A stretch of DNA of 60,699 nucleotides, the filler included, from Hausera hauseri (taxonomy: Eukaryota): NCBI GenBank assembly GCA_046269625.1. It is 10 parts of 10 records of this genome, joined end to end, with 100 filler letters (N's around TTAATTAATTAA, not from the genome) between each part and the next. Parts side by side here need not be neighbours in the genome. Positions count along the whole stretch, not along the records: positions 6,185 to 11,436 come from JBJURY010299167.1; 9 more parts are not named here. One strand, written 5' to 3'. The notes below the pieces were generated by a model. That model did no database searches, was not told the DNA's origin, and saw nothing but the letters and a program-made list of their open reading frames with translations. Of this stretch, positions 6,185 through 50,159 are shown piece after piece (position 1 is the first letter of the stretch; the number at the start of each line of letters is the position of its first letter). A program made the position numbers and the translations under genes.

Positions 6185-6298
6185 GTATGTATCATTATGA
6201 TGAGACAGTACTCACAAAGTAAATGTCTATTGTTTACAATGAAAACAAACCGGTATGAACAAATTTGATATAAATACGGATTCAATTTCATTTCACTT

Positions 6299-6736
6299 TT
6301 GTCTTTAAATAATGTATTGAAAACAATTCAGCAGGTGACAGTCTCAAAAAAGCCACTGTACAGCCAATATTCGCTCAGAAATTCCCGGTTGTATAATAGA
6401 TACAACGTACATTATCTGCGCAATGCTATTCAATTGCCATTGACGCAAACGGTCAAAATCAAACCGGTGAAATATGGTCCATTGGTGAAAAAGATAAGCG
6501 ACGATGATTTTGATACAATGGAATACACAATTTGAAAAGTTGGCAGTGATTTGGTGTTGAGTAACGATATCCGAGACACATCGTTAATTTTTCTCAATGG
6601 AAATATGGCGAAAATTATCAGTTCACATGGCGGAGAGACAACAGGAAAAGCAGTTTTGCCACATTGAAATAGAAAATATACAACGATCTGCAAGGCATTA
6701 AATGACCAATATGGAAGCTGGGAAAGTTTATACTGA
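6299..6736 (+). pseudogene. Hypothetical small gene convergent with pPolB (possible element accessory gene), broken by in-frame stops
   Basis: TATAAA at about 6270. The frame continues past TGA 6533-6535 (KVGSDLVLSNDIRDTSLIFLNGNMAKIISS...ICKALNDQYGSWESLY*). AATAAA follows downstream. No family recognised. Confidence 0.4.
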
Positions 6737-6955
6737 TTTGACTTCGTTTTTTGATTTTAACTTATGATGATTAATAAATTTTATTGATTTTGTTTTCCAT
6801 ATTGTTTCTCGTCACATTAAGTTAAATAGATATATTAAATGATAATAAAACAAAAGGCAAAAACAACGAGCAACATACTTTATACAAAACAAACAAATCA
6901 CAATGAATTGTCACAGTAATTTGATCTGTCTGCACCGAATTCATGCGTGCATGTT

Positions 6956-9900
6956 TTATTCCAAACGCCAATGTCCGTACGCCCAATTCTTATTCCGCCC
7001 CACCCACTTACGCTTATTATCATTGCATGATAAAGCGACTTTTGTATTGGTCACCATATACAGCTGGTGTTCAATCGATCGGATGATCGTTTGAGACACA
7101 ACAGCCTTTGATTTTCATCTTTCTTCATAGATACGGCGATAATCACCGTGGTGTATTTCCGTCTGGGCCAACTGAACTCCTTTGGTGCTCATTTTCGGTC
7201 CACCGTCAGTTAAAAGCTATAGCATTTTGGCCGTAGAAATACCCATTCCTGATACTGAACCCTGCCTTCACTTTGATTCTTGAAGCAGCCGATTTTGTTG
7301 GTGATAGCGCTGCTGTACAGCGGATGATCCAGTGGATAGTTGGACGTGTCCAATAATCCATCTGACTGTATTTGCTGCAGTAGCTGTTCGCGATTGACTT
7401 TTTTCAGCCGCAGGAAAAACTGTCTGTGTCACCGGCAATTATACTAATGTCACAGCCGTCAAACATTTGCCGGCAACGTGCCAAATCGCGATATTGCAGC
7501 TCATACATCCGCAACCTGCTTAGGTCAAATACCACGTGTCCGATGTAACTTAGCCGGTCCAGAACGATTTCTCTGTTTAAAAGCACAGCAACCAATTCAT
7601 TAGCAATGTGCATTGGTCACCGAAACTGCGCCTTAATTGTGTACGTGACCAACCGCTTTTCGCTATTGTATAGGTGTACATTGAGCCGCTTTTTCAGATT
7701 CTGTACTGTTTTTCCATAGAGATAATTGTTTTTCAGCTTGTAGTAGTCCTTTTCGAACTTTGTGCAAGCTGCGGCTCCTTTCTCCGAATTTCCATTTATG
7801 TACGCCTTGAATATGGGAGCCTGAAGAAATCGGATTGCACGATGCAGCTGTGTGACGCGTACATCGAACTGCATGTAGAACTGTAGCAGACGCCAATGGA
7901 CCACGTAATTCAGCTTCGGTTCATGCGTCATGGGCAGTTTCTTCACCTTTGAGCTTGGCGAGCATAGGTTAAATGGTGCGACCGGTAAATCGTTCAAAAC
8001 GTCATGCAGCCCATCTGGTTTCTCGAGATCGACCTTCGTCAGGTATCCGACGTAGCCTGCCATGTCTGTTCGTGGTAGGTCGACCATTATGTCGTCCAGA
8101 TCTTGTCTGTCGACTAACCATTCAAATGAACCATAGGGCTATGGTTGCGAAAGTGCCCAGCCGTACAGGTTATTAATATCAATATACAGCAGTAATGTGG
8201 TATGGGTAGCACTGACCTGATGCTTGTTGACAAATGTCTTGCCGCCGCGAATACCAACATCAAACATTTGTATATTTGCGGGTCTTGCAGCAGCTCAATG
8301 TCTCGATCCGACAACATTAGAGTTGACGCCCAACACATTCCCGATATGGAATAAAAGTTGAGTGGCTCCAGCCTCTCTTTCGCCAGCTCTTTGGTCCGAA
8401 ATACTTCGAAAACGTCGGCTAATAAGTACACGTCCAGTGTAAGATACTGGAGCATGTAATACAACACGTTTCTACAGCCCAGTTCTGTCCAAGATTCTTG
8501 TGCTCTCCGATATTCATCTACGATACCTGTCCATCTCGGCTGTAATTCCTCTGCTGTCCGGAGTTGCTCATATAATGTTGTAAAGTTATATGGAAATATG
8601 CCTTTGCTGCGTGCAATGTGTGGGGAATTGTGTTAACTTTATCGACACATCCGGCAAGGCATTTACCAGCTTCGCCAATGATTCATTGACAAACCGCAAT
8701 CAATTGAGAAGCGTACCTGAAGCCAGTTTATGCGTGCTAAGAGGGATTATGGACAGTTCCCAGTGCGTAAATCCGTTGATGGCCAATTTCAGTATATGGT
8801 GACAGTCGTAACGTCGGAAATTATTAAAGATCACCGGTAGGAATGGCCGCACACGCCTTGTTAAATTGCATGCGTTGCATGCTGCTCCCAGGTATCGACC
8901 GGTGAAATGACTATGGTCCGGTACGAGCCGTTCCTGTTCATCAAAAGGCAATATTTTGTGGCAGGGGTAACATTCATCGGTGACAGCGAAAAGCAGCGGT
9001 TCATATTCGTCTGTCCATATCAAGGGCTTGGTGCTATGGTTATTGTACCACGATGCGATTTCCGTTTCCACCGTCGTTTCCAACTGTTGCAGGAAATCGC
9101 GTACACAGTTCTAGCCATGGAAAACGTAATATTGCAGTTGTCCGGCGGCTTTTATTGGAACAACCAACATACCGACTGCGATCGGAATGTGCTTTTGGTT
9201 GTATACGTTGTGCCGCGCCAGGATTGCCTCGATATCTGCATATACTACGCATGCCGGAATGTCTGTTTTCGACCAGTCACTGATTCTCAGCTCCTTTTTG
9301 ACTCGCATGATTTACATTGTTGTCCCTGATGAATTCTGTCTGCACAGCACCACGTGTTTTCCCATGTCGTTTTTGACCTGAAACTATGCAGACATGTAAG
9401 GCACCATTTACAATTTATAGGCTTTTTTGAATTGGTGGTGATCCATGTTCGTCAGTATGTTCAAATTGGTTACTGCCACGAGGAAAATTTATCTGCTTGC
9501 TCTAACAGCAACAAATTTACCGAGCGTCCATTCGGGTTCCGACTGCGATAAATTATATCCACGTATGGGTTTTTGTATATCTCTTCGTCTGCCGGTATTT
9601 CTACGATTGTGTTGTACCAGAACACGTTGATTGCCAGTGTCGGATTACGCCGTTCAAAAGCCGGAATGGTTTTGAGTTTCATCGTCATCCAACACTCGTA
9701 GTCCAATTTTAAGAAATACAGTACTGCTTTGGACAATTTGCATGATGTCTGGACACTTGATCATTTTTCAATATGGCCAGAATGCAGTATTCGTCGTTAG
9801 TATTTTGTACATTCACTACCGCCAGAGACTGCTTTAAGGATGGAGGTGTCGGTATGAATGAACGTCCAGACAGGTAAATCATATCGCTCGTCTTGGTCAG

Positions 9901-10581
9901 AGTAAGGCCGAGAGAGACAGTCTTTACAATTCGCCAACCACTGCCCTTTTCGGTGTAGTTGGCGATTTTTTCTTCAAGCTTTTTGCCTATATCGGCAATA
10001 AAATCCTCAGAGTATAGTACGACTCGATGTGACAGGTACCATTGCTTCCTGTCACCCTGCAGATTTTCAAATTCTTCAAGTGCATAATATTGCACTATGC
10101 AGTGGTGTTGTTGGAATTTGGCCACTTCTGATTCCAACCGGTTACGCACATTAGCGGGTACATCCTTTAATTACGTTGCTGTTTTCGCCGACATGTCCAC
10201 CTCCATATCCACGTACGATCTGTTCAGGTCGTACTTGACAGTAATGGGCGGTTCACGTTCTTGCTGCTGCTGCTATCTCTGACTTCTGTTGTTTTGAAAG
10301 TATTCGTCAAGGCTTGCTGATGCTTGACGTTTCCTGCTGCTTCTTGCTGCGTCCATTAATATTTCCTTTTTGGACCTCTGAAACTGGTTCAAGTGGTACT
10401 TGTTAATGTTGTGGAATTGTTCATAGTTGATTTCATCAATTATAGAACAACCAGGACAAACGTAGTCCCGTTTACCGTGCACCGTTGTGGTGCCATAGTA
10501 CTGGTCCATTACGCTATGGCAACCATCAACGTCATGCACTCTACTACTACTACAGTATTGCGGATGTGGAAAAATGCACAA
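6956..10581 (-). pseudogene. polB: Protein-primed family B DNA polymerase (Polinton/adintovirus type) with endonuclease VII domain, frameshifted, near full length
   Basis: Ordered motifs across frames: N-terminal Cys/His domain; GSGW..VVNVQNTNDEYC; ExoI VVYADIE; EndoVII DHSHFTGRYLGAACNACNL; ExoII VIFNNFRRYDCH; ExoIII YLTLDVYLLADVFE; YIDINNLYG; KLKNNYLYGK; IAGDTDS; C-terminal NDNKR..AYGH*. Confidence 0.93.
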
Positions 10582-10960
10582 CCATCATCTTGGACCGCGT
10601 GAACGGACCAAGATGATGCTTGTGCGTCTCATAAAAGTCGGCGTACAGGCATGTGTTTTGAATAAAACACACGAGACAAAGGTACGTGTCCTTGGCCACT
10701 GAATAATATTTGGCCATTTCCTTGTGGCATTGTCCACCTTCATGTATGCGGGAGATGCACTACATGGGATATTGAGAACATCTCTGAATGATAAACAAAT
10801 TAAAGTAAATGTTAAACAAAAAACAAACAAAAATGTATTAATTATAGATAAATAAATTTAATTACAATACACTAAAACTTATTCCCCTTACTTCAGTCTC
10901 AGTCGTCGCCTAAATCGGCTATAAACATGTATCAACATTACTACTACTACTCTAAATCAA

Positions 10961-11216
10961 ATGGAAGAGTATATTAAAAGTGAAATTCAAAGATTGATTG
11001 ATGACATTTTGACAGGACGTGTTTGATGTACAGTTTTTATGTGAGCACACAAAAACATGAATAATTAGCAGGCGAGAGTATATTTAATTGATAATCAGAT
11101 CTCTCTTCGTAAAACGTATCGAGGATGAAATGAGACGAAAACGACAACAACGACGTATTAATTTTCTCATAGGACTTGTATTTACTGCTTCGCTTTGTAT
11201 TGTAATGAAAAGTTGA
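10961..11216 (+). pseudogene. Small tail-anchored-like ORF, degenerate homologue of 14934-15269
   Basis: MEEYIKSEIQRLIDDILTGRV/DVQFL...SRREYI...RRKRQQRRINFLIGLVFTASLCIVMKS aligns by eye with EAEIERLVGEICSGKIDCVQFL...SKEDYV...RKRQINVLL...GAFVIFLSK. Confidence 0.55.
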
Positions 11217-11536
11217 TTGACCGTATTTAATCACAAATACATATTATTTTACTATATTTGTTTTGGTGAATAAATATAATTTATTTGTTACATTTCAGTA
11301 TAAGTACTTGTGCTGCTTTACTGTGTGACATTACGACATGACCCATTTAACAGAAATCATTCGTTTATATCACTCGTTCGACGGTCTCCGGAGTCACCTT
11401 TGCAATCTTGACCCACCTTTACATGATATGCGATTCNNNNNNNNNNNNNNNNNNNNNNNNNNNNNNNNNNNNNNNNNNNNTTAATTAATTAANNNNNNNN
11501 NNNNNNNNNNNNNNNNNNNNNNNNNNNNNNNNNNNN

Positions 11537-14500
11537 TACTACCACAGCAGATTTAACAAAAATGCCAAGTGCTGCCTAGGGTGCAAATTTTATAACAAAA
11601 GTTTTTCTTCAGACACCATTGTTTGCATTTACCACGCAAAGTTTAAAAATCAAGCCCGTAAATGCATTCTAGGCTGCACATTCAAAGCAGGTACAAACGA
11701 CTGACCTGCTACCTTTTCTTCTAATAGCCGTCCTAGTTCACCTTTTCAAAAAAAACTAAATTTGCCACCAGAAGTCACGACAAACTCTGGTAAAGACACT
11801 ACTTCACTTTCTGAATGCCGACACGCCTCTTTTGCTCTCTCTACTCTACAGGCTGCAATCATCGCTGCTACAACACAATCCGTTGATTTCCTCATTGATA
11901 CAAGTGCATCTATTTCCTCATTACCACAATCTTTTCCTGTACAAAATTCACCATTCAAAATTAAGCCCTTATAAACCGCTTCATGTCAACCGCTGCACAT
12001 TTCTGGCATGGCTAAACTATCTTTTATCTTACCACAATTTTCTTTACCTTTCCACTGGACGTTCACAGTTGCTAACGTTCAGACGGCAATTCTAGGGTCC
12101 GATTTTCTATCGCATTATAATTTATTGGTTGACTGCAGTCAACGATGTTTGAGGAGCGACATCACTGGCAGCATTACTGAGCATATAAATAGCATTTCGA
12201 CTACCTCACAGTCGATTGAAACGCGGAGATCAATTTTGAGAAAACCAAAAACTACTTTGAATTTTCTTAATATTTCACCTCGCAAATTTTTAAGTAATAA
12301 TACTGATATTCGATCGAGGTTCAATGTCGACAATTGTGGTACTTTCACCAATGTTCATTCACTTGACGAAACAACTTTATCAAATACCACGTTCAATTCG
12401 ACCATTTTACACCAAATACCACTTGACTGCACAGCATCAAACAATTCACAAATTGCATCCGCTACTACTCAAACCGTTTCATCATCATCACCGAATCTCT
12501 CACAGTTGCCTACAACTTTACAGCAATTCGTCAACACATAATGTCCACGAGTAATCAGAAAAGATCGTACGTTTACTCCTGCAAACAGCACTGTACATCA
12601 CATAATTATACAGCATTAACGACCAATACACCAAAAGGTACGACCACTGTCACCTCATCGTAGACAGGCCGTAGAAGCCGAATTTCATGAACCAGAACGC
12701 TCCGTTTCAAATCTCCTTGGTCGTCACCTTTACACGTTGTACAAAAAAGGATGGCACTTTTAGACTATGCGGTGACTACCGACAGTTGAACAACTTGACC
12801 ATCATAGATGCGTACCCTCTGCCACTCACTAAGGACATCCTGAATCGCCTTAATTCAACTGCAATTTATTCGACCATCTATTTGGCCAAAACATACCACC
12901 AAATACCCGTGGCACCCGAAGACATAGAAAAAACTGCTATTACTACCCCTTTTAGCCTCTATGAGTACCGGTTTATGACATTCGGTTTGCTAAATGCCGC
13001 ACAAAATTTTCTGCGACATATCGCCTCAATTCTCTCAGATTTTCCGTTTGCACGCCCTTACATTGATGATATTCTGATTGTTTCCTCTTTGGACAATCAA
13101 CACGAGGAACACCTTCGCGAAATATTCCAACGCCTTCACCACCACAATCTCCAAATCAATTTCGACAAATGCCATTTTTTCAAAAAACGCATCAACTTTT
13201 TGGGCCACGTTATTTCACCAGGTGTCCATTCTCTTCAACCAGACCAAGTTGAAGCACTTAAAAATATCCAGTTACCACGTACGACCACCGAAATTCTCAG
13301 CTTCCTCGGTACACTACACTTTGTACATAAATATGTACCATATTGCCCTGAATTTACAGCATCATCCGCACACTTAAGCGGTGGCAAAAACATCAGCCAA
13401 TCCAGTAGAAACCTAAGTTGGTTGACAAGTTTGATAAGCTACGCGAAGTAATTAAGACCGTCGACATTCTCGCTTTCCCCAAGCCTGATGCAGCACTCAT
13501 CCTTACCACAGACGCTTCAACCACTGCGGTAGGTGCTGTGCTTCACCAAATCCACAAAGGAGAAAATCAGCCACTAGAATTTTTTTCTCGCAAGCTAACA
13601 TTCCCTGAAACTAGATATTTAACTTTCGATCGGGAATTATTGGCTATCGTTCTTGCTTTAAAGCATTTCTCCCACCTACTTGTCGCTCTCCATTTTACCA
13701 TACAGGCCGATAACAAACCCTTACTTAACATCATGACTATGAAACATCCTTCCACACGCCAAGAATGACAGATATCATACTTGTCGATATTCAACTTCGA
13801 CATAAAACATATTAACGGGGTTAATAATTTGGTTTGCGATTGTTTATCTCGGTCGATTAGTTCGATTAATTATTCACCGATTTTTACCCAAGTTCAACTT
13901 TAACAGAACCAGCCACTTCAGAACATGATTAATTCTTTCAAGTCTTGCATAATCGTTGACGGAGTGGCTTTACACACTTCCAAACCAAATTATTCCTTAA
14001 TAATCCTTGCACCACCGTTGCAAAGGCAAGCATTTAATAGTGTACATTTGCTACACCACCGTGGTGCTAAAGCCACTTTTCGTTTACTCCACCGATAAGT
14101 AGTTTGGCCGTCAATACGTTCTGATGTGCAGGCATGGGTTAAGGAGTGTGTGTTTTACCAAAAGTATAAAACAACTAGGAATTTAAAGCCACCACTATTC
14201 CACTTCCCCTGTACATCGCGTTTCGAATCCGTGCATGTATACGTCGTTGGCCCTCTTCCTCCAGACAGCGGTCATCAATTCATTCTCACCATCATGGACC
14301 GTTCCTCGCGATGGCCAGAAGCCCTCCCTCTGCGGAGCATAAATACCGATACTATAGCTGAAGTTTTCATCCGTACATGGATTAGCAGGTTTGGATCACC
14401 TCGCTTCATCATCACGGACCAGGGTCCACAGTTTAAATCCAACCTGTTCAAATTCCTTGTTAACTGATTGGGGATCCATCACATACATACTACGCCTTAC

Positions 14501-14650
14501 CATCCCCAATCGAATGACCTTTTATAACGTTTCCACATAATACTGAAAACGTTACTAAGAATCCTTGCAGAGTCCAACACTAGTTGGACGAATCTTCTTC
14601 CGTTTGTTCTGCTCGGCTTAAAGAAAACTCCGTCTACTTCTACAGGATGC
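11537..14650 (+). mobile_element. Ty3/Gypsy LTR retrotransposon remnant (CsRn1/Kabuki-like): gag end, protease, RT, RNase H, integrase
   Basis: Gag CHCC motif CIYHAKFKNQARKCILGC; protease FLIDTSAS; RT RLCGDYRQLN...YIDDILI; RNase H TDAST..DRELLAI; integrase VVGPLP..ITDQGPQF. Domain order PR-RT-RH-INT, with many stops. Confidence 0.92.
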
Positions 14651-14933: not shown

Positions 14934-15269
14934 ATGGCGTTGTTTCAACAAATAGTACGACAAATAGTACGCTTTTTTAAATATGTTCTCCTAAATTATT
15001 TATATACTTATAATTACAAAATAGATTTAGAAGCGGAAATTGAGCGACTGGTAGGTGAAATATGCAGTGGGAAAATAGATTGTGTTCAATTTTTAAATGA
15101 ACTGGAGTATGAATACTTTTTGTCAAAAGAAGACTATGTAGAACTTGTTCAATCGATATTAATTACAAATATTAAAGAGTAATTTAGAAAAAGACAGATA
15201 AATGTTTTACTTGTGCGTAATATGCTTACTGGTGCATTTGTAATATTTTTATCTAAATTTATTCGATAA
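14934..15269 (+). pseudogene. Small ORF with basic patch and C-terminal hydrophobic segment, convergent with pPolB; one in-frame stop at 15180-15182
   Basis: TATAAA at about 14910, ACCATGG start context, homologue at 10961, AATAAA right after the stop. Confidence 0.55.
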
Positions 15270-15372: not shown

Positions 15373-16141
15373 TTAAACAAAATATATTCGCATATTTGTA
15401 CAATAATGTCCATACGCAACACCTTTGTTCTTGTCAATCCACTGACGTTTATCGTCGAACGGATCCTATGCTTTCTTTTTTGAGCTGATTGTCATGAGTT
15501 GGTGGCTTTTACTACCAATTCGCTCCTGGTCCACGATGGTGCTATAACCGATTTCATAAGCCTATATGTAGCTGTCGAATTGCAAGTCTATCTGCTTGAG
15601 ATTGATCCCTTTGCATTTGAGGACTGGTTTGCTTTAGGTTTTGAGGGCATAGGATTTGGGCCGTAGGAAAATCGCCTCTTGATACTGAACGCTGCCCTTA
15701 CTCTCGTCTTTAAATTTTCCAATTGTGGCTATGAAACGTGTCGAGTACAGCGGATCATATTTATCTTAGTTCGAAGTGTCCAACTGCTCGTTTGCTATTA
15801 TTGCCGGTAAGAGTTGTGATCTCAAATCGACACACGGCATTCGATTAAAAACTGTCTGTCACCGGCAAGGATATTAAGTTCACAATTAAACTGTTGCCTA
15901 TGTCTCCAACTCGATATAATTCAGTTCATACATGCGCAACTCGGACAAATCAAATACGTCCTGTCCGATGTACGAGGGTCTATCTAATGTAACCATATCT
16001 TTATAGAGGAGAACTACAACCAAGTCATTATCTATAATAATACTCTCCTTAAACTGTGGCTTGCTGGCATATGTAATAAGCTTAGCATTATTACGTAGTT
16101 TTAAGTTGGACCTTTTCAGAAGATTTCCAAATGTTTTGAAG
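15373..16141 (-). pseudogene. polB: pPolB C-terminal fragment (close relative of 57894-60460)
   Basis: LDRPSYIGQ..DLS.LRMYE, ILAGD.DS, LDTSN, FKDES, FLRPKSYA, FDDKR..VAYGHYCT. Long nucleotide matches to 57900-58630. Confidence 0.9.
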
Positions 16142-16241: not shown

Positions 16242-16485
16242 TTATCGGAAATTCGATATTATTGATTTTTGCACACTTGCACATGTGCTGCACACTTGCA
16301 ATTGCACCAATCAATGTGCACTCATGTGCAAGTGTGCAAAAATTAATAATATAAGATTTCCAATATTAGGCACTTTTTGAATCAATAGTGCACACTGTGC
16401 ACTATCGATCGGCACATATGCAAAATCGATTTATTGACCCCCGCCCACCCCCGAGTGGGGCAGAACCGCCATTTTCTCCATACTC
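16242..16485 (-). mobile_element. Terminus of a hairpin-rich repeat family (5'-GAGTA...), abutting truncated pPolB
   Basis: Reverse complement matches 54053-54160 and 30014-30120. Stem ATCAATAGTGCACA-C-TGTGCACTATCGAT at 16381-16409. Confidence 0.75.
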
Positions 16486-18220
16486 ACAAAATATTACCGC
16501 TTAACGCATTGGAACGGCCCGTACCGGATCACGATGATTTTAATAGTCGATACTTGAGAGCAGCATGTAATTCATGCAATTTGGCAAGACGGGTGCGGCC
16601 ATTCCTGCCGGTGATATTTCATAACTTCAGGGGTTATGACTGTCACCAAATTCTGAAATGGACCATAAATAAATTTCCGCACTGGGTGCTATCCATAATT
16701 CCGATTGCAATGGAGAAATACCTGTCACTGTCAGCACGTATAAATCGGTTCCAGGTACGCTTCTTTGATTCATTGCAATTTCTCAATAAATCATTGACAA
16801 AGCTGGTAAATGCCTTGCCAGATGTGCCGATAGCACTGATGAAGTTCCCGCACATACTGCACGCAGCAAAGGCATATTCCCATATGACTTTGTAAGATCG
16901 TATGAGCGACTCCGGACAGCAGAAAAATTACCGCCGCGATGGAAGGGTATAGCAGAGGATGAATACTGGAAAGCACAGAGGTGTTGGACAGAACTCGGCT
17001 GTAAAAACATGTTGGATTGTATGCTTTAGTATCTTAAATTGGTCGTGTACTTATTAGCCAATATGTTTCAAGCGTTTCGAGTGAAAGCGTTGGCTGAAGA
17101 TAGGCTAAAGCCACTCAAGTTTTATGCCATACCGGGAATGAGTTGGACGTCAACTCTAATGCCACTGGATTGAGACATTGAGCTGCTGAAAGACCCAGGA
17201 ATGTACCGGCTGTTTGATGTTGGTATTCGCGATGGCATGACATTTGTTAAAAAGCATCAGGTCAGTGCTACCGATACCACATTACTGCTGTATATTAATA
17301 TTAATAATCTGTATGGCTGGGCGCTTTCGCAACCCTTGCCGTACGGTTCATTCCAATGGGTTGTCAACAGACAAGATCTAGACGACATAATAGGTCAACC
17401 TACCACAAGCAAACATGGCATCTCAGTCGGATACCTGATGGTGGTCGATCTCGTGGTACCAGATGAGCTGCAAGATGTTTTGGATGATTTACCGGTCGCA
17501 CCATTTAACCAATGTCTACCAGTCTCAAAAGTAAAGAAATTGCTCATGACGCATAAACCGAAGCTCAACTACGTGGTCCATTGGCGTCTGCTACAGTTCT
17601 ACATGCAGCTCGGTGTACGCGTCACACAGCTGCATTGTGCAATCCGATTTGCTCAGGCTCCCATATTCAAGGCATACGTAGACAGAAATTTGGAGAAACG
17701 AGCCGCAGCTTGTGAAAAATTCGAAAAGGAATACTACAAATTGAAAAACAATTTTCTGTAGAAAAAAACAGTGGAGCATCTGAAAAAGCTGCTCAATGTA
17801 CGCCTATGCAATAGCGAAAAGCGGTGGGCCACGTACACGAGAAAGGAGCAGTTTCGACAGTCATTACTCATTGCCGATGGATTGGTTGCGGTGCTGTTAA
17901 ACAGGAAAGAAGTCATTCAGGACCGGCCAAGTTACATCGGACAAGCGGTATTTGGCCTGAGCAAGCTGCGGATGTATGAGCTACAGTTACGCGATTTGGA
18001 ACGATACCGGCAAATGTTTGACGGCTATGATAATAGTATAATTGCTGGTGACACAGACAGTTTTTTCCTGCGGCTGAAAACAGTCAATCGCTAAAAGCTA
18101 CTGTAGCAAATGCAGTCAGATGGATTACTAGACACGTCTAACTACCCACCGGATTATCCGCTGTAAAGCAGCGCGATCAACAACAAAATCGGCTGCTTCA
18201 AGGATGAAAGTGAAGGTCAA
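16486..18220 (+). pseudogene. polB: pPolB fragment (EndoVII to polymerase C-terminal region), close relative of 6956-10581
   Basis: RYLRAACNSCNL, PVIFHNFRGYDCH, YININNLYGWALSQPLP, KLKNN, IIAGDTDSFF, FKDES. Confidence 0.92.
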
Positions 18221-18436
18221 TGTCGATTAGTTGATATTGTAAATATCCACAATGGGAGAATAATCTAATCTCTAATATAGAAAAAATTCCGACTTTAGGA
18301 ACAAAATGTGATTATCTAAAACGATTTGTAATTACCCAAAATAAACGTAATATTTTTTTTAACAAAGATGGCTAAAAATCGATGTAAATAACTTTATTCA
18401 AAAAATCTATTTATTGTATAATATAATTTTCAATAT

Positions 18437-24963: not shown

Positions 24964-26144
24964 ATAAATCTTGTATTAATCCTTTAAAGTACACGTGGAC
25001 TGACTTGACTGTAGAGATGCTTGCTCGAAACTTGAACTGGTAAGATTTGATTTTATTGAGAGCCTAGATAGCTCGTTTATTAACTGCAGGTTTTCTTTGA
25101 TCAATATTGTTGAATTGGATCTTGGTAATTTGCTTTCACATGACTTCAATTTTCCTTCCTTGTACAGTTTGAATAATTGATTATGGTCATCGGGTTTTCA
25201 TTAACGTTATTTGGTGGTGAACGTCGTATTCTCTACGCACTTGATTCTTTTCTGAATCAACCTGCTTACAATGTACATGGATAATCTGCAACAACGTCTG
25301 TTATTAGTAAAAACAATGATTAAAATGAAATAGCTAGAGTTTTCCATATTAAAATTTTCCACTTGATTATTTCGGTGTTCGTATACAAATAAATGTGGTG
25401 CAATTTAACTTTGGTCACAGCAAACCTGATAAATCCATTTTTTTCATTTTCTAAGCGGAAAATCGGGGCCCGCCTATGCGCCCGTCGTGCCGGCGGTGGA
25501 AAACCCGGCCGTGCCCAACCGTATGGGCCGGATGGCAACAGTCGGCGCCGGCACCACATCCACCTTCGTAGTAAAATTTAATATAATCCAAAACGAAGTA
25601 ATTCCAAAATATGTTTCTGCTCAAAATTACAAAATGGAAGTGTTATTTACATAAAACGAAAGCAATTCAGTTATTTTATAATTAATTTTCCTATTTTTAA
25701 ACAATAGGAATTCCACTGATTAGTTTGTAATAATTTTTTATTTTACACAAGTAAAAGTGTCCTCTTCTAACCACTTCCCCCAAAGTTGACTTGAAAACCA
25801 GTTTTCCCCACCTATCTTGCAATTATGAGGATTTCATGTCTGGTGGTCGGAGATCCCCGTCCCAGGGAGAGAAGAAGGTCGGGAAATAGACTTCGGACCG
25901 AGATCAATCGGTAGAGCCGGACAAGGCGAACAAAAGTTAAATGCGCCGTGAAGCGGAAAAATGTAACCCGCCGGCACAGGAGTCAGAAGAAGAAAAACGG
26001 GCAATGTGCAACCGTCAACGCAACGCATGCTGCTGGTATACCGAAATTTTGTACAGAGGTAAAATTGATGTTGGCAAGTCGAATGGACACGGTTTCGTTA
26101 ACGTCCAACCAAGGGAACATGGGGAAAACAAGTTTGGAAAATTT

Positions 26145-26246
26145 CCGTCGGGTAAAATTTCCCCATGTTCAAGTCTGCCGGTGATGGAAATAAGTCTCAT
26201 ACATTACACATAAGTTGGGGAAAATTTCATACCATAACCGCCTCAC
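26145..26246. repeat. Dispersed repeat; reverse-complement copy at 29913-30014 truncates the pPolB there
   Basis: CCGTCGGGTAAAATTTCCCCATGTTCAAGTCTG...AACCGCCTCAC matches the reverse complement of 29913-30014. Confidence 0.8.
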
Positions 26247-26973
26247 GATCAGGCGACTTTAAGTCGGTGTGTGAAAAACGTCGCTGAAAATCATNNNNNN
26301 NNNNNNNNNNNNNNNNNNNNNNNNNNNNNNNNNNNNNNTTAATTAATTAANNNNNNNNNNNNNNNNNNNNNNNNNNNNNNNNNNNNNNNNNNNNACACGT
26401 GCTGTATCCAATTATTACATCATATATTCGAAAACTCGAAAACAAGTCGAACTTTCGAATAATTGATTTCCTATTCGATTAGAAGCAAAAATCGAAAAAT
26501 CTAGAAGCGTAGAGGGATAGAAACCCGAATATATGGAGAATTCGAATATGACGTCAGATATTCGAAAAGAGGCTTAAATAAAAAAACGATTTTTCGATCG
26601 AATTCGAATATTCGAATAGTACCATCGGCCTCTCCAAGTCCGAAAACCTTTGCAGACCACAAATTGGGTGTGCAAAGTGTTTGGAACAGTCTCAAAATGA
26701 ATAAAATATTTAAAAATTCGATAATATTCGGTCAAGCATGCATTATTGGAACAATCTGATCACTCCATTCCATTCCCCATGTATAAAACATATTTGGCGC
26801 CCAAGTGCATTTAATTTATTTGATGCATTAAAACAAAGTGTTCTAGAATGTTCGAAAATACAAAATTTAAAAATCCATAAATGAGGCAGTATGTGTTGAT
26901 ATGGCTATATGTTTCATTATTTTCAAAATCATATTCAGGAATGATGAGATTTTTATTTGTAATCCTCAAATAA

Positions 26974-29905
26974 ATGGCTGACTTTAGATGTGCAATCTAT
27001 ACAAACAGTGCTTGGCTCAAATCCACGAGCCTGAAAATTGCCACAACGTTATGCAGAAAAACTTCAGCCATCTATACAACAGGGCTGAGTATTATATATG
27101 CCCTACATGTGAGGTGGTGTGCCAGACCAAAAATGAAGACTTTTACAATGCTCATAAACAACACCCGATTCCATTCACTAAGTCGAAAAACAAATATTCA
27201 ATGCCACTATGCCAATAATGACTTCCATGCCTAAGCAAAATCAAAGATTTAGTTCATACGTGTATTGCACATGTGCAATACACAACCCTCAGAACTGTCA
27301 TAATGCCATGAGGAGCTATTATAGATACAAATTCAACAGGATCTTCTATTATATATGCCCAAAAAGTGAGACTGTGTGCGGCACAGATTACATACAGTTC
27401 TATTATGATCACAAACATCATTTGAGTCACTTCGCATCAAAGTCAAAGAAGGCCATCTTTAATGAGCAACATAATTTTGATTCATTTGCTTTGCAGTATT
27501 ATGCTTCATAGTATTCTGCCTCGCATTATGCTGCTGAACCCGGTGCAGCAGCTGCGAAGCATATTAGAGAATTAAAACTCGCAGCCACATCATGCGCAGC
27601 AGCATCAGGCGCAGCAGCATCAGGTGCAGCCACATCAGGCACAGCCACATCAGAAGCACCGGCTCCATCAGAAAGCCAAAGACAACGGCCAGTTGATGCG
27701 GCAGCATTAAAGAGAAAATGCCGCAGATATGTTATTGAAGCAACTGGTCAAACAACCCTCCAAGATTTCCTCTTATATATAAAGGATAAGACAAAGGGGA
27801 TTCTTCAGGACAACATGGCTGAGCTCAAAGCCCTTAAGGTGAATATGAAACTGGAGGCCACAAAATCCAATAGGGCCTTCAAGATCAAAAATAGACCCAT
27901 ATTGGAAAACACAAATATAGCAGAATTGATGCAAGAGGCGCACGAGAAACTGATCCGTGAAGCCGGGGAGAGCCAGGATAAGAAGAGCGTATGGACTCTG
28001 TCAACCATGAAGAGATTGATTGTGTATGTTCACAAGTACTCTCCCATGCGGGACAGGTCATATCTTCAGCTCCCTGAATGGATGATTAATTTAAAAAGCA
28101 TGTGTCAATGTCCATAATAACGACAACATGTGTTTCATGTATGTCATTCTATCAAAACTCGTAACGGATCAAAATCATACTTCACGAGTTTGGCTTTATA
28201 AGGATGTGCGGCACAATTATGACTTCCAATGTATCAAGTTCCCTCCATCCATAGGTGAAGTCAAAAAATTTTGAAAAGTCAACAACATGTTTATCAATAT
28301 CTTGGGATTGGATGAGGAGGACAAATTCTAATTCCTGCTGATATGCGATACTGAATTGGAAGATCATAAGGATTTGCTCCTACTACACGATGGAGAAAGA
28401 AGCATAATGTTTGGATCAAAGACTCTGAGCAGCTAGTCAGATCACAATTTACAAAACATCATGGATAAATATAAATATGTAAATGATGCGTGTCTCAATT
28501 CAGCGACGATGTAACTGTATTGAAGCTTGCACAGCACAAGATGTATTGCAAAAATAATTATTGTATCAGGCCATAATTTCCCAAAGAGGACTACATTGAA
28601 TTTAAGTAGTTCTAGAAGAAGATCATAATCCCAATAGTTATCTATTGCGACTTTAAGACTATTTTGCACCCAGTATAGAGTTGCAACCCAAATCCCCAAC
28701 ATAGCATCACAACGGTATACCAATTTCATGAGCTCTTATCATATTGCATGTATGCCAAAGGACTGGACAATGAACCATATCTATTCATGGATCCAGGCGC
28801 AACAGCTCATTTTATGCAACGACTTGAGGATATGGCTCATAGGATTTCAGATATGCTGCAGTAGCATAAGGATAAAATGAGCATGTCGAAGCAGCAACAA
28901 GAAGAATGGCGCAAGGCAACAGCATGTTACTTGTGCTCCAAATCATTCATTAAGTAGAATTGTAAAGTCAGGTATTATTGCCGTTTTACAGGCACACATC
29001 GAGGTGCGACATGCAACAACCACAATCTGCTTCGCAAAACATGTACATATGTGCATATAGTGTTCTATAATCGTAGTGGCTATGATTCCAATTTCATGGT
29101 TTGCGAACTGGGCAGCATTGAAGGAAGCATTGACGTGAGAAGTACATAACATTTACAATGCATGTAGAGAAAATCATGCTTCGCTTCGTAGACAGTTTCC
29201 GTTTCATGTCGCCTTCATTTGACAGTTTAGTGAAGAACCACCCATCAGAAAAACTCAATGAGACGAAGCGGTTCTTCCCTGCGACATTTGACCTAGTCAA
29301 GAGGAAAACGTGTTTCCATATAACAATATAACATCATGGGAAACACTGAAAGAGACCACATTGTCAGCCAAGGAGGACTTTTACAATATCCTTTCTGATT
29401 GAGATATCAGTGATATGGACTACCACAATGCTCAAAATGTCTGGCATGCATTTCCGTGCCGAACATTAGGGGAATACAGCGACATATACCTTAAGACGGA
29501 TGTGATGCTGCTGACGGATGTCTTTGAGAGTTTTAGGGATGTTACGATAAAGAGCCGTGCTTTGGATCCGGCTCATTTCTTTACGGCTCCAAGGATGAGT
29601 TGGGCAGCTATTCTGAGATATACCGGTATTAGGTTACAGATCATAAAGGATTGCGACATGATCCTCATGATCGAGAGAGGCATTAGAGGTGGAATATATC
29701 AGGACATTCATCGGTATAGCAAGTCCAACAACAAATATATGGCCTAGTATGATCTATCCGAGAAATCCTCATATATATCATACCTGGATGCCAACAATTT
29801 ATATGGATGGACAATGAGCGTCCTAATGCAATGTGATGACTTCAAGTGGATCGAGAATCCTGAAAACATCTCTATACTGGATCAGTTTTCACCCGGATCC
29901 ATTGG
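26974..29905 (+). pseudogene. polB: pPolB of a distinct subfamily with two N-terminal Cys/His repeats and an Ala/Ser linker; 3' truncated
   Basis: LKVNMKLEA..RAFKIKN; KYSPMR..SYLQLPEW; EndoVII-like C.FTGTHRGA; RFVDSFRFM; TLGEYSDIYLKTDVMLLTDVFESFR; IERGIRGG; YLDANNLYGW. Confidence 0.9.
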
Positions 29906-30013
29906 TCTGATAGTGAGGCGGTTACAATATTAAAATTTCCTCAAACTTATTTGCAATGTATGAGACCCGTTTCCATCACCTCAGACTTGAACATGGGAAA
30001 ATTTTACCCGACG

Positions 30014-30760
30014 GAGTAGGGTAAAAATTGAAATTCTGTCCCACCTCTCGGGGTGTGGGGTAATCGATAAATCAATTCTGCATGTGCCAATCGATAGTGT
30101 ACATAGTGCACTATCGATCGGTAATGTGCTAGGTGACGGTGCCATTAGGCACCGTTGCTATTCACATTTTTGTACATTTCACTTATCGATCGCTGCACAT
30201 TGCAAAATTGATTGAATCGATCGGCGAAAAGTGCTAATCGATAGTGCACATTAGTGCACATAGATTTGTGAATTGTGCAGGTGCGCAGCACATGTGCAAG
30301 TGGGCAAAAATCTATAATATCGGAAGCACATACGATGCACTGCATGAATGTGCTGTTAGAATTTAAATCGATCGATTAATTTCCGAATAATTGCCAACTG
30401 AGGGTTGACATATATAGGCCTTTCGGCTATAAAATGGAAATCAATAATATCAATATGGCACATGTACTGGCGGGTAGAGTACATGATGTACTATTGTTCA
30501 GTAAAATAATCGAGTCAATTGTCTTCTTGGATACGGTTGGTAAGGCACTTTTTCTCTTTTCACATATTTGTCACTGTACAGCGTAGGATGGATGGAATCG
30601 ATTGGGGTCAAGTGCAGTAGATAGAGCACATCGAGATGCATTTTGGTATGCACTATGCAGATGCACAGAACATGTGCAAGTATGCAAAAATCAATAATAG
30701 CGGTTTTATCAATCTGCATTTAGAATTTAAATTTACGGATTAGTTTTCGAATAATATCGG
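30014..30760 (+). mobile_element. Hairpin-rich 5'-GAGTAGGG repeat (same family as 16242 and 54053), with an internal second unit at about 30570-30760
   Basis: GAGTAGGGTAAAAA start, serial ATCGATAGTG..CACTATCGAT and ACGGTGCC..GGCACCGT stems. 30180-30390 resembles 30570-30755. Confidence 0.7.
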
Positions 30761-31110: not shown

Positions 31111-32930
31111 ACTTTGTTGTAGGCGCTAAATGTCACTCTGCGTGCCTCACTTGATTGATTTGTGCTTGGCTGTTGAGCGACATTTTGTGACAGAAGTTCT
31201 GTGAGATTATCTGGTTCAATAGATGTAGGTAATGGAGGTGAGGAAAGTGGTGGAGATGATGACAGAGAGGAAAACAAGATGGATGGAGGAAATGATTATG
31301 ATTGAGTGTGACAGAAGAGTAATTGCTGCAACGGCGCAAAGTCATGGAGAAAGTTTGAAAATGGAATGGAAGGAGTAAGAGTTAAGTTTGAATCGGAGGT
31401 AGAGTTGGTATCCGGATTGTCATCAATGAAGAAAGCGGGTTTTAGATTCGAAATATGAACGTTGTAAGGTTTGTCTTGGCGTAAGATGGTAGGTGTATAA
31501 GATGAGAGATTCAGGAATTTGTATGGGCCAACATATTGAGGCCTAAAACCCGAAGGCGATTGATCCTTCAAACACAAAAACTTGGCCGAGTATAAATCTT
31601 TCGGAATGTACGATTTGTTATTGTTGAAGAGATGGCAGAACGAGTCTCAGCTGACCTCGTCAAAATGAGATTGTGCTGCACGAATATTTTCATCTGTGGG
31701 ATTGTCGTCGAGATCGGAAAGTTCAAATAAAGCCCGAATTGAAGTCCTAAAAAGTGCCTCGGCTGGAGCACAACCGGTGGTGGTGGAGGGTGTGTTGCAC
31801 CACCCTAGTAGAACAAATGGTAGAATGGACGTCCAATTACGATGATTGTCAGCCAAGATTTTTAAAGAAATTTTCATTGTTCGATGGAACCTTTCAAGGA
31901 GGCCATTCGCTTAAGGATGATATGGTGTTGTATAAAAATGCGATATATCCAAGCGTTTAATAAGTGATTTGAAGAGTTCCGATTCAAACTGTGGACCTTG
32001 ATCCGTTATTATGTAAAGCGGGGAACCAAAATGACTGATCCAGATTTTTATAAAGGCATCGGCTACTGAATCAGTGTTCGTTGAACGAAGAGGTACGGCT
32101 TCAGGCCAGCGAGAAGTAAGATCCATCATAGTAAGGATATATTGATATCCGTTGTCAGAATGTAAAGGGCCAATGAGATCAAGATGAACCGTATGAAAAC
32201 GTGATGTACAAGGGAAATGGTAAAGCGGCAGTTTAAGGTGTTTGTTGATTTTGTATTTTTGACCGGCTACGCATTCCTTAACCCAGCCCTGTACATCTTT
32301 GCGCATTGATGGCCAAACTACATGACGTTGAATCTTGCGAAAAGTTGCTTTCGAGCCCGGATGATGGAGTGAATGCGTATGAAGGAAGGCTGGCTTTTGT
32401 AAATGTGGAGTTAAAATGATCTTTTTATTATCGGAATTCGACGTATCAAAAGGAATACCATCAATGATTTCGAAGGATTTGAAAAAGCTAAGGAAGTCAT
32501 CAGACGGTTGATTGGCCTTTAATACTTCGGATGAGAAAATCGGCTCAATTGTAGTGGAGCCAACCTACCTCGATAGAAAATCTGCTACCAAATTGTCTGT
32601 ACCTGAAATGTATTGTAAAACAAAACTGAATGTAGACAGGTATGATATATGTCGTTCTTGCCTCGGTGACTGCTGTTTTAACGATATGATATGCAGGAAA
32701 GGCTTGTGATCAGTTTGAATAACGAATAGACGAGAGAGAAGTAGGTGTTTAAAATGTTTTACTGCCAGAACTGTGGCGAGTAACTCACGGTCAAATGTTG
32801 AGTAACGGATTTCGGGTTGTGTGAGTTTTCGGGAGTAGAATTCTAATGGTTTATCGACGCCGTTAGAAATCTGGTGTAGTACTGCACCGGTAGCTGTGGT
32901 AGAGGCATCGGTGGTAAGTATAAGACCAAA
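31111..32930 (-). mobile_element. Ty3/Gypsy pol remnant (RNase H + integrase), same clade as 11537-14650
   Basis: TTDASTTATGAVLHQI, FDRELLA, HHPGSKAT, HLDLIGPL, WPEAVPL, ITDQGPQFES, RPQYVGPY. Confidence 0.9.
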
Positions 32931-34076
32931 GTTTTAGTATCAATAAATTTACAACCGGATAGTCACTGAGAATGGACTTGCGAGAATTCCAAACGATCAT
33001 AAAGCGTAGTACATCGAAACCCGTGGAACTGCTGACGGGAAAAACAGAAGTTACAACGAAAATCATCAATTGGACGTATTTGGCAATTGTTGTTTATAAA
33101 TCCTGAAGATTACGAGCAGTTTTTGTTTCATAAAAATGATTTACATGAAAAGATACAGGAAACAACCAAGCCTGATAAAACGTTGTTGGAAACACTTAAT
33201 ATTATTTAATCATGTAAAACCTGAAGTCGAGGTTGCCTTTTCTCTGTTGAGATGCTCCTTGAAGGTACGTCAGAGGCTGGTGCGAGGAAAGACGCTGGCT
33301 TTGGTGTCCATAACGTGTCAGTGAGAGAAATCAGACGATGCAGCGTGAGCAGTGTTTCTAAGAATAATCCAGCGGGACAAGTAACAAACTTTGTCGTCCA
33401 GGTCATTCAATAGTCATTCCGGCTGTGTTCGTCCTGCGTATGCAGCTGTGCTTGGTTGCAAAAAGGCCCATGTTGCTCGTGGACTCTCGAATTTGGACAA
33501 GTAGGGTGGTGAGGCACTTAATGACTCGCTGCGGATATTCATATATGATTTCCTGATCTTGTTCTGACCACTTTGTCAAACTGTTTTGAGTGTATAATTG
33601 ACGCTATTAGAATTTCATGTATTTTGTTGTTTAATTCACCTTGAATTTGAGAGGATGACAATATTAATAGGATTCAGCAATTTTCGATCTCTATGTTGAT
33701 TGTGATATGAAAATCATGTTGAGTAATTTGCTTTATCAAAAAAAATTTACGTTTCAAAATTAAAAGTATTAGGGTGTCCCATAATTTTTCGAAATTATTT
33801 TAGATATTGTTTTCTATTTAATATATCGTCGTTGCATATAAAGTTTTTATGTGTTATATAACGTTTCCATCTACCGCAATAAAACTTTACAATACTCTTC
33901 AACAACAGTAAAGAAAACCTTACCATGTATGATAGTGATGACCGTAAATGTAAAAAAATAAAAGTGTACTTTAGAGATATTAAGTTTTCTGTTGAACCTT
34001 TTATATTAATTCATTATTAATATTGAACGGCTCAATGAATTAAATAAAAAGCGATCTAAAATTATCACCCGCTTAA

Positions 34077-37000
34077 CTCTCATGAGAACCTTACTAAAAA
34101 ATACGTTCCAGAACTTTGGGGTGTAAACATACAAATTATTGATTTATTATTTGACAAACCAAAAAAGTCTAAGCTTAAACATGTATTAAGTACTGTTTGT
34201 TTTAATGTTATTCATTTAATATCAATCAGTTATTTGCATTTGTTGCACAGTAGCCGAGTCAGCCTGTTGTCACCACAGACAGCATTGCTACAATTGTCGC
34301 AGAACTTTCTGACTTTTCTGTTTCTTTCGCGAGGGCAGACGTGGCATCTTACGTGATCAGGCATTGATTTTTCTTTCTTTTGAGCAGATCCTGTTTCAGT
34401 CACAATACCCAGAGTGGATATTGCAGCCTTTGTATGTTAACGGAGTGTCGTAGGATTTTCAGTGCGACGACTAATTTCCGGCTTCACCAAACTCCACGAC
34501 GAACTGTCGACGACGAAACCACTTTCATTCTTGACGCTAATCTGGAAATTTGGCTATCCACACATTAAAACTGGTCAGTGCTGCAACGTCAGTCATGTCC
34601 ATCGGTCACATGTTTATTTTACGCTTGCAAGAATACAGGCAAACCATATGGTCATAATTATCGGCACCACACTTTTTATCATTATAATGAATAATTATAT
34701 CTGGCTTATGTTTATGACCGTACATATGCCTGTCATGATGCATGGTATACAGTAGCATGACAGACTTTTCTTTTTAGAAACGTATGAAACCAGAGTTTTA
34801 TTCTCATGGAAAGCAAACATGGAGCTTTTCTTCACAATTACGTGCCAACATCGGTGGTGGAAAATCATGCTTGCTTTTCTCATGGTTTTAACGTATGTCA
34901 AACCCTGAGTCAGTAAGTGAGTTTTTCAGTAAGTGAAAAGCTTGTGAAGAGATTGTCACCAACTACATTACGACCACTGGCAGGTTTTCTTGGGATATAT
35001 TGACATAAATGGCATCTTTCACGGAAAGATAGGAGTTGTTTGTTTGCAGTTAGATCTGTGCTTGGAGTATAAAACTTTCTAAACCGTATTACAAACATTA
35101 TTCAGACATCACGAGTGGCAGTTAGTTTGTCAACTGCTCATCTTTTTAGCCGAATTGTTTTGTTATAAAAACGATAGAATTGAAGAAGCAACTTGAAGCG
35201 TTTTAGACTCGTTATTGTTAGAAAAATAGGTCGACCGCTCCTTTGCGACCACAGTTCGTGTAGTGACTCGTGACTATCGTGGTAATCACCGGCCAGTAAT
35301 AGCAGTCCTATGAAAGCCTTGAATTCCATCCAGTCTACTTCATTTCACTTTTTTGTGTTGTTTATACGAGCGTCATTCCATTCTTTATAGCATCGTTCTG
35401 TTTCCCGAGTAGTTTCTGTTATAATTATCGACTAAAGTTCGTCGGTCAGATATAGATGAAATACTTCGTTGATGTAGTCTTTTCGAGTTTCATTTGTTAC
35501 TCCTTGCTGGTGTCTGATAATATCTTGCACTTGTCGTCTGTTTACAGGTGGTGAATCAGTTGACCAAATTCGTCCCGTTCTATCTGTCAGTGTATTGAGG
35601 GAATTTTGATGGTCGTCGTCATCTTTTGGTGTTGTAATTCTGTCTCGTACTATGCGACATCTGTATTAATATCTCTTCCCCTTCTTCTTGATTGTTTGGC
35701 CGCTGGAGGAAGCATCTAATAAAATTTTAAAACAGTAGCAAATTGTACCAAAAATGTAATTCAATTACTATATGGATAGATATATTTCCTGATTTACTAA
35801 GTAGATGTTTCTACAAATGTGTAAACAAGCACGTTTTTGAAAAATACAACCTTTTTAGAAATCCACGGGAAATTTTAGGTGAATTTATTAAATCGATAGG
35901 GATATATGATTTTTAAAGTCAACAACTTGCGCCATTTTACAGAAATGGATAAAATTCAAATCCGTTCAGCAATCCATTATCTTTATTTGAAGGGATTGTC
36001 AGCCGCCGAAATTAAAAGGGACATGGTTGAAACATTGCATGAGTCTGCTCCATCATATCATATTGTTCGTTTCTGGTTGAACAATGTTTATGATGAAGAT
36101 ATAAGTGGACACCCAAAAGAAGTAGCTACGCCAGAAAGCATGAAAGATATCTATGGTGTTGTTCAAAAAGATCGCAAAATCAAGCTCAAAGAGATAGATA
36201 ATATTACAGACGTCATATATGACAGAATTTGGAATATATTACTTACATATTAGTATATGTAAAAGTTTGTTTCCCGGTGGGTGCTGCGCGTGCTCACAGT
36301 TGATCAAAAATGCGAACGAGTAAAAACTTTAAATGCCTGTTAAAATGTTCACTCACAACAAAAAAGATCTTTTGCGTCGATTAATAACAATTGATGAAAC
36401 GTAGATCCACCATTACCCATCTGAATCCCAAAAACGATTAGCACAATTGGTAGAACCAGGTGAATGTCAAGGGCGGCATCCAAATACATACAAGACTGCT
36501 GGAAAGGTTATGACCACAATATTCTGGGATTCCCATGGTATTTTGCATGTCGACTACCTCAAGAAAGGTAAAACGATAAATAGTGAGTATTAATGTTCAT
36601 TTCTAGAAAATCCGGATGCCGCGATCAAGATGAAACGACCAAAGTTGACGAAGAAATGCTCTTTTTGCAGGATATTGCACACAAGTTAATCAAAATATAA
36701 CTAAAATACATCAGCTACGCTTCGAATTACTTACACACCCCCGTATTCTTTAGATCTATATCCTAGCTATTATTTCTTTTTCCTAGCATTGAAAACATGG
36801 TTGCAGGGAAAGAGATTTTCCTCAAATAATGACGTCATCTACGAGACAAAGAGATATTTTGAGGAACTTGACAAAGCGAATTTTAAAAGGCTTAGAAATG
36901 CTAGAAAAACGCTGGATTAAGTGTAAAGAACTAAAAGAAGACTACGTAGATAAATAAATAAAGAAATTACCAAAAATATGTTTTAGTTAGTAAACGAGGA

Positions 37001-49229: not shown

Positions 49230-50159
49230 TGACAATTACCCCGTTTTTCTCATTGTCTTGTGACATTTTTAGTTTATTGTTTTATTACTATTACGAGGTG
49301 GGCCAGAGGTAAGGCCTGCATTAAGGCCCAAACTACTAAAATGGTGGCATCGGTTACCGCATTTACGCTTTTCAATACAAATTCAGCCATTAAAATCAAT
49401 CCGGCTTAAACACTGCACACAGCAGTTGATAACAATCCGGCTAAAATTCGCACAAGTGCCGTCGAAATTAATCCGCTCACACAATGGTGTATCAACAAGT
49501 ATGATCACGTAACACCCACTGACAGTTGTATCAGCAAAATCAACTACAATCAGATAATCACAATGAGTGATTCTGAACAAGTGCTAAAATATTCTAGCAC
49601 TAACACACGCGCCAACACCATAAAATCCGAATACAAACCGGATTATACGAACCGTGCCAAAAATAGCACACACAACAAGCGAAAATTCGCTATTTAACCA
49701 TTCATCCAATCGTCAGTCGATTGACATTGCCAACAAAATTCACTATGGTGAAACACCATCAACCGATTGTACGCCAAACGAAGTACAACTCATTGAACAA
49801 AATTGGCGTCATACGAAAACTCATCGCTTTCCATCTACTCTAGACATGTCGGGTATGCTGGACGTTTTAAAGCAACAATATCCCGAGCATACATTTTCCC
49901 ATAATGGAAAGATATTGGGTAAGAATAATTGCGCAATCAGCGCAATATTCACACAAAACAACACTATACTGGCGACTCCCGGACTAAATGAAGGCGTCAA
50001 CACTCATACATCCGACAAAAAAGCCGAAACTGCATCATCGGCACCGGCCAAACCTCCAAAATGAGCATGTCCAATCTTCTTAATAGGTTCGGACGGAACG
50101 CCATTGAAGTGGTTCCATGTGTTTGAAACATGGGCTACTCAATGCAGCATCACTGGCCA
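49230..50159 (+). mobile_element. LTR retroelement 5' region: tRNA-Leu-like PBS and gag start
   Basis: TGGTGGCATCGGT at 49342-49354 (12/13 match to the tRNA-Leu PBS TGGTGGCAGCGGT). Gag-like P..WFHVFETWATQCSIT at the contig end. Confidence 0.5.

Follow-up and report, generated by a model that had tools for sequence, protein, structure and literature searches.

Decayed protein-primed polymerase genes of three lineages in the Hausera hauseri genome are probably relics of highly repeated Polintons

Genes for a protein-primed B-family DNA polymerase (pPolB) occupy 12,507 of the 59,799 bases counted (21%) in a 60,699-nucleotide (nt) window of Hausera hauseri DNA (GenBank assembly GCA_046269625.1), which strings together ten contigs, each 4-10 kb long, with spacers between them. 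Our preferred explanation, to which we assign a probability of about 0.6, is that these loci are decayed endogenous Polintons with a polymerase of the Alpha-adintovirus type, belonging to three lineages, present at very high copy number and seen here through short contigs. We favor Polintons because the sister clade of two of these lineages carries capsid, ATPase and integrase genes, and because members of the clade itself reach contigs of 10-16 kb. The density of pPolB in these ten contigs is by itself no genome-wide measure.

The longest open piece (58051-59235) has 310 homologues among proteins of 693-2000 amino acids (aa), and among the best 120 of the 310, which were used, the closest relatives share 50-56% identity with that piece. 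Comparison of these 120 database homologues with the window by tblastn located five loci with polymerase domains. A reading of the DNA from sequence alone (hereafter the sequence-only reading) had counted six, the last of which (54345) turned out to be a 5′ end alone. The loci, with one insert, are as follows.

6962-10566, minus strand (polymerase match 6962-10792): near full-length pPolB pseudogene of lineage 1, with N-terminal module copy 2, terminal-protein/vOTU region, exonuclease, endonuclease VII (EndoVII) insert and palm
8859-9017, minus strand: EndoVII-like insert (Pfam PF02945, E = 4.9e-6, above cut-off, in piece 8703-9110)
15379-16137, minus strand: C-terminal pPolB fragment of lineage 2, cut at the contig end (tblastn, tree)
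16506-18241, plus strand: internal pPolB fragment of lineage 1, truncated on both sides within the contig (tblastn, nucleotide self-comparison)
26991-29915, plus strand: two N-terminal modules ahead of a distant-clade pPolB, of which the first two thirds are present (tblastn, module profile)
54345-55045, minus strand: sixth copy, 5′ end alone, comprising two modules plus the beginning of the region that follows (module profile)
57906-60460, minus strand: pPolB of lineage 2, the least decayed copy (tblastn, stop count)

The three subfamilies proposed in the sequence-only reading (6956/16486, 15373/57894 and 26974/54345) hold as groupings. Lineage 1 copies 6962 and 16506 are 81% alike over 1733 nt and lineage 2 copies 15391 and 57897 are 77% alike over 756 nt, while the 26991 polymerase falls in a separate clade, its pairing with 54345 drawing on weak matches. 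At 54345-55045, the two module copies score E = 1.7e-7 and 7.1e-8, 45 aa resemble the region that follows (33%, E = 0.002), and no catalytic domain appears before the contig ends.

All five copies with polymerase domains are pseudogenes in the standard code. Aligned to the intact 1235-aa relative P0017, the 6962 copy matches aa 8-1234 at 58-73% identity in 7 pieces (tblastn), with 13 in-frame stops and catalytic motifs that are still recognisable. Across loci 6962, 15403, 16506, 26991 and 57906, we counted 13, 9, 6, 13 and 3 in-frame stops and 7, 1, 2, 5 and 4 aligned pieces, respectively. All three stop types interrupt the copies and Trp is encoded by TGG, ruling out an alternative genetic code as a rescue of the open reading frames (ORFs). 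Ratios of nonsynonymous to synonymous divergence (dN/dS) between paralogous copies were 0.44 (557 codons) and 0.16 (228 codons), indicating that the copies diverged as working genes, under purifying selection, and that decay came later. Those present here are dead relics, not working replicons.

Pfam recovered DNA_pol_B_2 (PF03175) and Endonuclease_7, the latter bearing out the EndoVII insert suggested earlier, and the gene encodes a B polymerase of the protein-primed type, in which the vOTU Cys/His residues, exonuclease, EndoVII insert and palm are conserved. The Cys and His at the expected vOTU active-site positions are invariant in 58 of 58 aligned homologues; within the window, the Cys is visible in the 6962 and 26991 copies and the His in the 57906 copy. 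This assignment was made by position and motif, as given in PMC11161782. According to the same source, the pair is intact in polintons and altered or inactivated in all known bidnavirids; the bidnavirid hallmark is thus absent here, where the catalytic pair is intact. The predicted structure of the intact relative P0015 (mean pLDDT 87, residues 1-72 unresolved) has phi29 polymerase as its best match in the PDB, and bidnavirus-like and adintovirus PolBs as its best matches among viral models; a pPolB profile found no sequence match in the PDB.

We then placed the copies in a FastTree phylogeny of 208 sequences, a set of database hits only, without named Polinton, Repbase or plasmid references and without nematode sequences. 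Copies 6962 and 16506 group with P0017, and copies 15403 and 57906 with P0026/P0027, all four falling within a clade of 78 sequences with a support of 0.997. The 26991 copy lies far off, among proteins that include two insect genome annotations (P0104, P0108). A quick IQ-TREE run on 28 rows, without the 15403 fragment, agrees (SH-aLRT 100 and 99, the latter for the 26991 placement). The sister clade of 51 sequences includes L038, which encodes an integrase with rve and chromo domains, a weak match to an A32-type ATPase, and Adeno_PX. L038 also has a putative protease, named from a motif. The low-confidence model (pLDDT 56) of a 429-aa L038 protein matches double jelly-roll capsid-family proteins with Z scores of 10-12, and L093, in the same sister clade, has a homologous capsid. 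A scan of genome contigs added 4 loci and a scan of IMG/VR with an alignment 14 distant loci, the former outside the trees; in IMG/VR, no match was found for a piece of the window, two clade-specific DNA patterns, the small protein P0271 or an alignment of the core-like ORF (both described below).

Several neighboring loci in these trees have gene contents of their own. Sister-clade Polintons carry a TATA-binding-protein-like gene (L038:7815-8399, Pfam TBP E = 4e-12; L035:5194-5739). Another pPolB clade (L040, L042, L044, L047, L050) shares an ORF of 134-144 aa; in L042, L044 and L047 one contig end consists of long tandem repeats, and flanks of 2-4 kb or more contain no core gene, while L050 has an ATPase and a core gene. 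L033, a close clade relative, has a dual-specificity phosphatase gene downstream (L033:2926-3234), past tandem repeats. L095-L098 are Polinton-type contigs within bacterial metagenome-assembled genomes, probably through contamination, and L097 has a full gene set.

The lineage 1 contig at 6185-11436 is heavily repeated. From the public run X1, 25,896 contigs align on it, 1,931 at ≥99% identity, 5,131 at 95-99%, 10,507 at 90-95% and 8,327 below 90%; they cover all 30 bins of the contig at a summed depth of 2,263-111,067, against 5-15 for the eight X1 pieces listed. Run X2 contributed 1,101 contigs. Although depth does not equal copy number, we infer copies in the thousands. The flanks are as repeated as the pPolB gene, 47 contigs overrun the ends of 6185-11436, and the X1 alignments listed show no site where many contigs start or stop, so that this contig most likely lies entirely within the repeat. 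Because the repeat spans the whole 5.25 kb, flanks included, the small ORFs beside the polymerase are part of it. Together with the tree and the structure, these contigs support the proposal of the sequence-only reading that a divergent family of Polinton/adintovirus type has strongly expanded in this host.

Ahead of the polymerase stands a Cys/His-rich module, which is doubled at 10354-10783, 26991-27466 and 54616-55045. Its features on the lineage 1 contig are listed here.

10354-10557, minus strand: Cys/His (zinc-finger-like) module copy 2 (profile E = 7.7e-15)
10580-10783, minus strand: Cys/His module copy 1 (profile E = 5.8e-13)
10784-10891, minus strand: putative AT-rich intron with GT-AG borders, lying upstream of module 1 and judged by eye
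10576-10625, no strand: 22-nt inverted repeat in the coding region of module 1, overlapping the module match

The module turned up in 19 of the 74 clade members, 6 of which have two copies, and in none of 51 sister-clade sequences or 78 others, counts in which missing 5′ exons in database proteins could mask some occurrences; six-frame scans of all 98 fetched loci detected it in six clade loci only. Its residue pattern suggests metal binding, and it is most likely a zinc-binding addition at the terminal-protein end that would contact DNA or protein. An atlas feature search returned a best score of 0.77 (PHD fingers), below the useful range. At 26991, the two modules (E = 6e-13 and 8e-15, the second in frame with the next polymerase region) precede a polymerase of the distant clade; this in-frame position argues for exchange between co-resident lineages, making the 26991 copy an apparent chimera of a clade module and a distant-clade polymerase. 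The hairpin at 10576, considered as a possible element end, was ruled out as it lies in coding sequence.

Three small ORFs accompany the polymerases.

10961-11225, plus strand: broken small ORF (about 83 aa), C-terminally hydrophobic and divergent from pPolB (P0271 match in two pieces, E = 4e-6)
15021-15266, plus strand: second hydrophobic-tail ORF, convergent with pPolB (55% identity to P0271 over 83 aa, E = 5e-25)
6269-6733, plus strand: broken ORF, about 155 aa long and convergent with pPolB, inside the high-copy repeat (ORF reading)

The first two are linked through the natural protein P0271 (83 aa, hydrophobic tail), for which just 2 homologues were found among 1.84 billion representatives and for which an atlas feature search gave a best score of 0.83, below the useful range. 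Of the small neighbors named in the sequence-only reading, those at 10961 and 14934 are accordingly real and related; for that at 6299, a sequence search (12 candidates for ORF 6269) found no homologue. PHROGs provided no name for any of 11 accessory proteins. A hairpin-rich dispersed repeat, probably a non-autonomous element of the host, occurs at 16243-16495, 30014-30755 and 54043-54244, and also at 26144-26252 and 29907-30015. The repeat beside 16506 and 29915 was rejected as an element end, since it adjoins broken gene ends and is also found on a contig without pPolB.

The Polinton core genes not visible in the sequence-only reading did not appear in a profile search either, albeit one of low power. 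The profiles, which were derived from the fetched loci and represented integrase, ATPase, capsid, penton, protease and core protein, matched two gypsy integrases in the window and no capsid, penton, ATPase, protease, core protein or Polinton integrase. Outside the clade, a core gene was seen at 0 of 16 loci with <1 kb of flank, 3 of 15 with 1-2 kb, 6 of 17 with 2-4 kb and 21 of 25 with >4 kb; this test used 94 of 98 fetched loci, left out 8 loci outside the tree, and gives optimistic rates because the profiles came from the same loci. The flank is 1.4 kb on contig 6185-11436 and <1.3 kb in all 12 clade loci in the tree, and with flanks so short the missing genes carry little weight.

Several observations nonetheless count against decayed Polintons. 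No capsid, ATPase, protease or integrase was found beside the 12 clade loci in the tree, beside L033 or in the window. Polintons by definition have long terminal inverted repeats (TIRs) and a 6-bp target-site duplication; no TIR or target-site duplication was seen, and no element end lies within contig 6185-11436. On the last contig, the 57906 copy is followed by 2.85 kb of repeat-rich DNA and then by the sixth copy on the same strand, leaving two copies head to tail with repeats alone between them. In favor of Polintons, clade loci L020 and L022 have a convergent ORF similar to the Polinton core protein (scoring 17.0 bits versus ≤8.4 in 1000 shuffles; profile-profile match not significant), yet in L020 the 481 nt upstream hold no ORF >43 aa, unlike four Polinton loci in which the ATPase ends ≤44 nt from the core gene; homologues of this ORF are all on contigs ≤2.2 kb. 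Finally, contig sizes fall within 1% of a cluster mate for 35 of 73 clade contigs versus 6 of 33 in the sister clade. Such recurrence favors small units, but shared assembly breaks would yield the same pattern.

A rival explanation is that the loci are compact Polinton derivatives of about 6-7 kb that retain pPolB and one or two small genes. Stripped of the virion module and perhaps of the integrase, they would replicate themselves, with full Polintons inserting or packaging them in trans. Clade contig sizes recur at 5.70, 6.05, 6.67 and 7.2 kb, and the core-like ORF without an adjoining ATPase, the head-to-tail copies on contig 10, the very high copy number and the position of the small ORF, upstream of pPolB in one lineage and downstream in the other, all fit. 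Joint loss of capsid, protease and ATPase also has a precedent in 9 of 72 Polintons (PMC4028283). However, among contigs encoding proteins of ≥1000 aa, the median is alike in the clade (6055 nt, 20 of 76 at ≥10 kb) and the capsid-bearing sister clade (6225 nt, 5 of 35). The clusters that recur at 5.7-7.3 kb also include members of 11-12.6 kb, so the sizes may be assembly breaks; 12 of the 15 P0010 cluster members listed lie on 10.9-16.3 kb contigs, and 7 of 16 clade clusters have a contig ≥10 kb. The repeat, moreover, reaches both ends of its contig with no shared start or stop site among the alignments listed. We regard compact derivatives as a serious but distinctly less probable explanation. 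More speculative again, and in our view doubtful, is the extended proposal of a widespread undescribed clade of such 6-7 kb derivatives, with a zinc-finger-tipped pPolB, one or two small genes and neither virion module nor integrase, self-replicating, inserted or packaged by helpers with which they would swap the module, and present here in thousands of copies.

Two further origins fit less well. Endogenised polymerase segments of a segmented, Vesanto-like bidnavirus relative, with the capsid on other segments, would agree with bidnavirus-like PolBs being the top matches of the predicted structure, with the frequent 4-7 kb size of clade contigs, and with Vesanto segments of 3.3-5.8 kb, several with PolB, as described in 10.1101/2020.10.16.342956. 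But L011, a bidnavirus-like locus of 6543 nt with 272-nt TIRs and NS1, is distant in both trees, and the sister clade belongs to the Polintons. The vOTU pair, inactivated in all known bidnavirids according to PMC11161782, is intact here, and the ORFs scanned and short clade contigs show no NS1, parvovirus-type capsid or terminal TIR; this origin is improbable. A linear plasmid, mitochondrial or cytoplasmic, that became inserted in the nuclear genome would account for a pPolB with few neighbors but is more improbable still. The linear-plasmid-like replicon raised in the sequence-only reading is, in its mitochondrial sense, made unlikely by Trp TGG and the three stop types: the code is standard, with none of the organellar use of TGA for Trp. 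A vOTU is present, no RNA polymerase gene was seen, close relatives L017, L027 and L041 have apparent GT-AG introns, read by eye, and the clade is nested among Polinton polymerases, in trees without linear-plasmid polymerases.

If the loci are Polinton relics, an active element would, by analogy with its relatives, express one pPolB polyprotein from which the vOTU frees the terminal protein, and would copy itself as a linear molecule in the nucleus by protein-primed strand displacement. An rve integrase, its own or that of a co-resident Polinton, would insert new copies, which would then accumulate stops and frameshifts as well as other repeats. Relatives show TATA-like motifs and what look by eye like GT-AG introns, which suggest nuclear transcription, and recombination may have passed the Cys/His module to the polymerase of a second clade in the same host.

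The remainder of the window offers some context. The host is an animal, judging from NAB-type NCD2 domains, a Mos1-type helix-turn-helix domain (HTH) and gypsy pol genes. Decayed gypsy pol genes at 11760-14650 and 31296-32933 are 64% alike, the first stopping some 370 nt before small ORF 15021. The contig at 1-6084 is degenerate satellite DNA throughout, with a self-identity of about 73% over many offsets, 45343-50159 holds an odd cluster of broken ORFs with one bromodomain and two NCD2 (NAB) domains, and 35900-36250 is a decayed Tc1/mariner transposase (Pfam HTH_48), as presumably is 51200-52600, judged by eye. From a translation read, we take the contig at 38373-45242 to resemble teleost fish DNA (the 3′ region of an L2 LINE), and the contig set may thus mix fish with another animal, such as a parasite.

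Should the preferred reading prove correct, these loci would add to the Polintons a branch that has no name so far and is marked by an N-terminal module specific to the clade. They would also document the swapping of a module between lineages that share a host, and would make this animal genome one with an exceptionally large Polinton burden, of use in dating and in research on amplification. Compact derivatives, if that is what they are, would instead be an element intermediate between Polintons, bidnaviruses and linear plasmids, able to replicate itself but dependent on helpers, implying that retention of the polymerase alone can drive massive spread.

Much of the surrounding biology is already described in the sources cited here: pPolB genes with a nuclease inserted, adintoviruses that persist as decayed endogenous copies, Polinton lineages that have exchanged polymerases (10.1101/2023.08.22.554363) and the capsid-less Polintons noted above. 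A literature search returned no account of the clade, the Cys/His module, the 83-aa ORF or such an expansion, although no search was aimed at the module and supplementary tables may hold members. The capsid-less Polintons of Repbase (PMC4028283) have jointly lost capsid, protease and ATPase, and loss of the integrase as well would go beyond what is reported there. Nematode and oomycete pPolB2 Polintons with an HNH insert, described in 10.1101/2023.08.22.554363, likewise have a nuclease inserted in pPolB, a likeness that does not imply the same insertion. Copy number here is apparently far above the maxima of 388 and 259 integrase-linked pPolB2 given there, counts that are not directly comparable. 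Bidnaviridae and Vesanto share a related PolB and small linear units, and L011 shows an apparent decayed trace of the same Cys-rich insert; they differ in their distance in the trees, in the active-type vOTU found here, and in the NS1, parvovirus capsid and TIRs that were not seen. The closest parallel is with Alpha adintoviruses and Polintons (PF03175, OTU-bearing PolB; PMC8502044), which share a pPolB of about 1200 aa, the vOTU-type Cys/His pair and decayed endogenous copies; the sister clade has integrase, ATPase and double jelly-roll capsid, and the 26991 copy groups with insect P0104 and P0108. What sets the H. hauseri loci apart is the N-terminal Cys/His module in one or two copies, the small hydrophobic-tail ORF, core genes that are unseen, and the placement of two of the three lineages in a clade with 74 database members.

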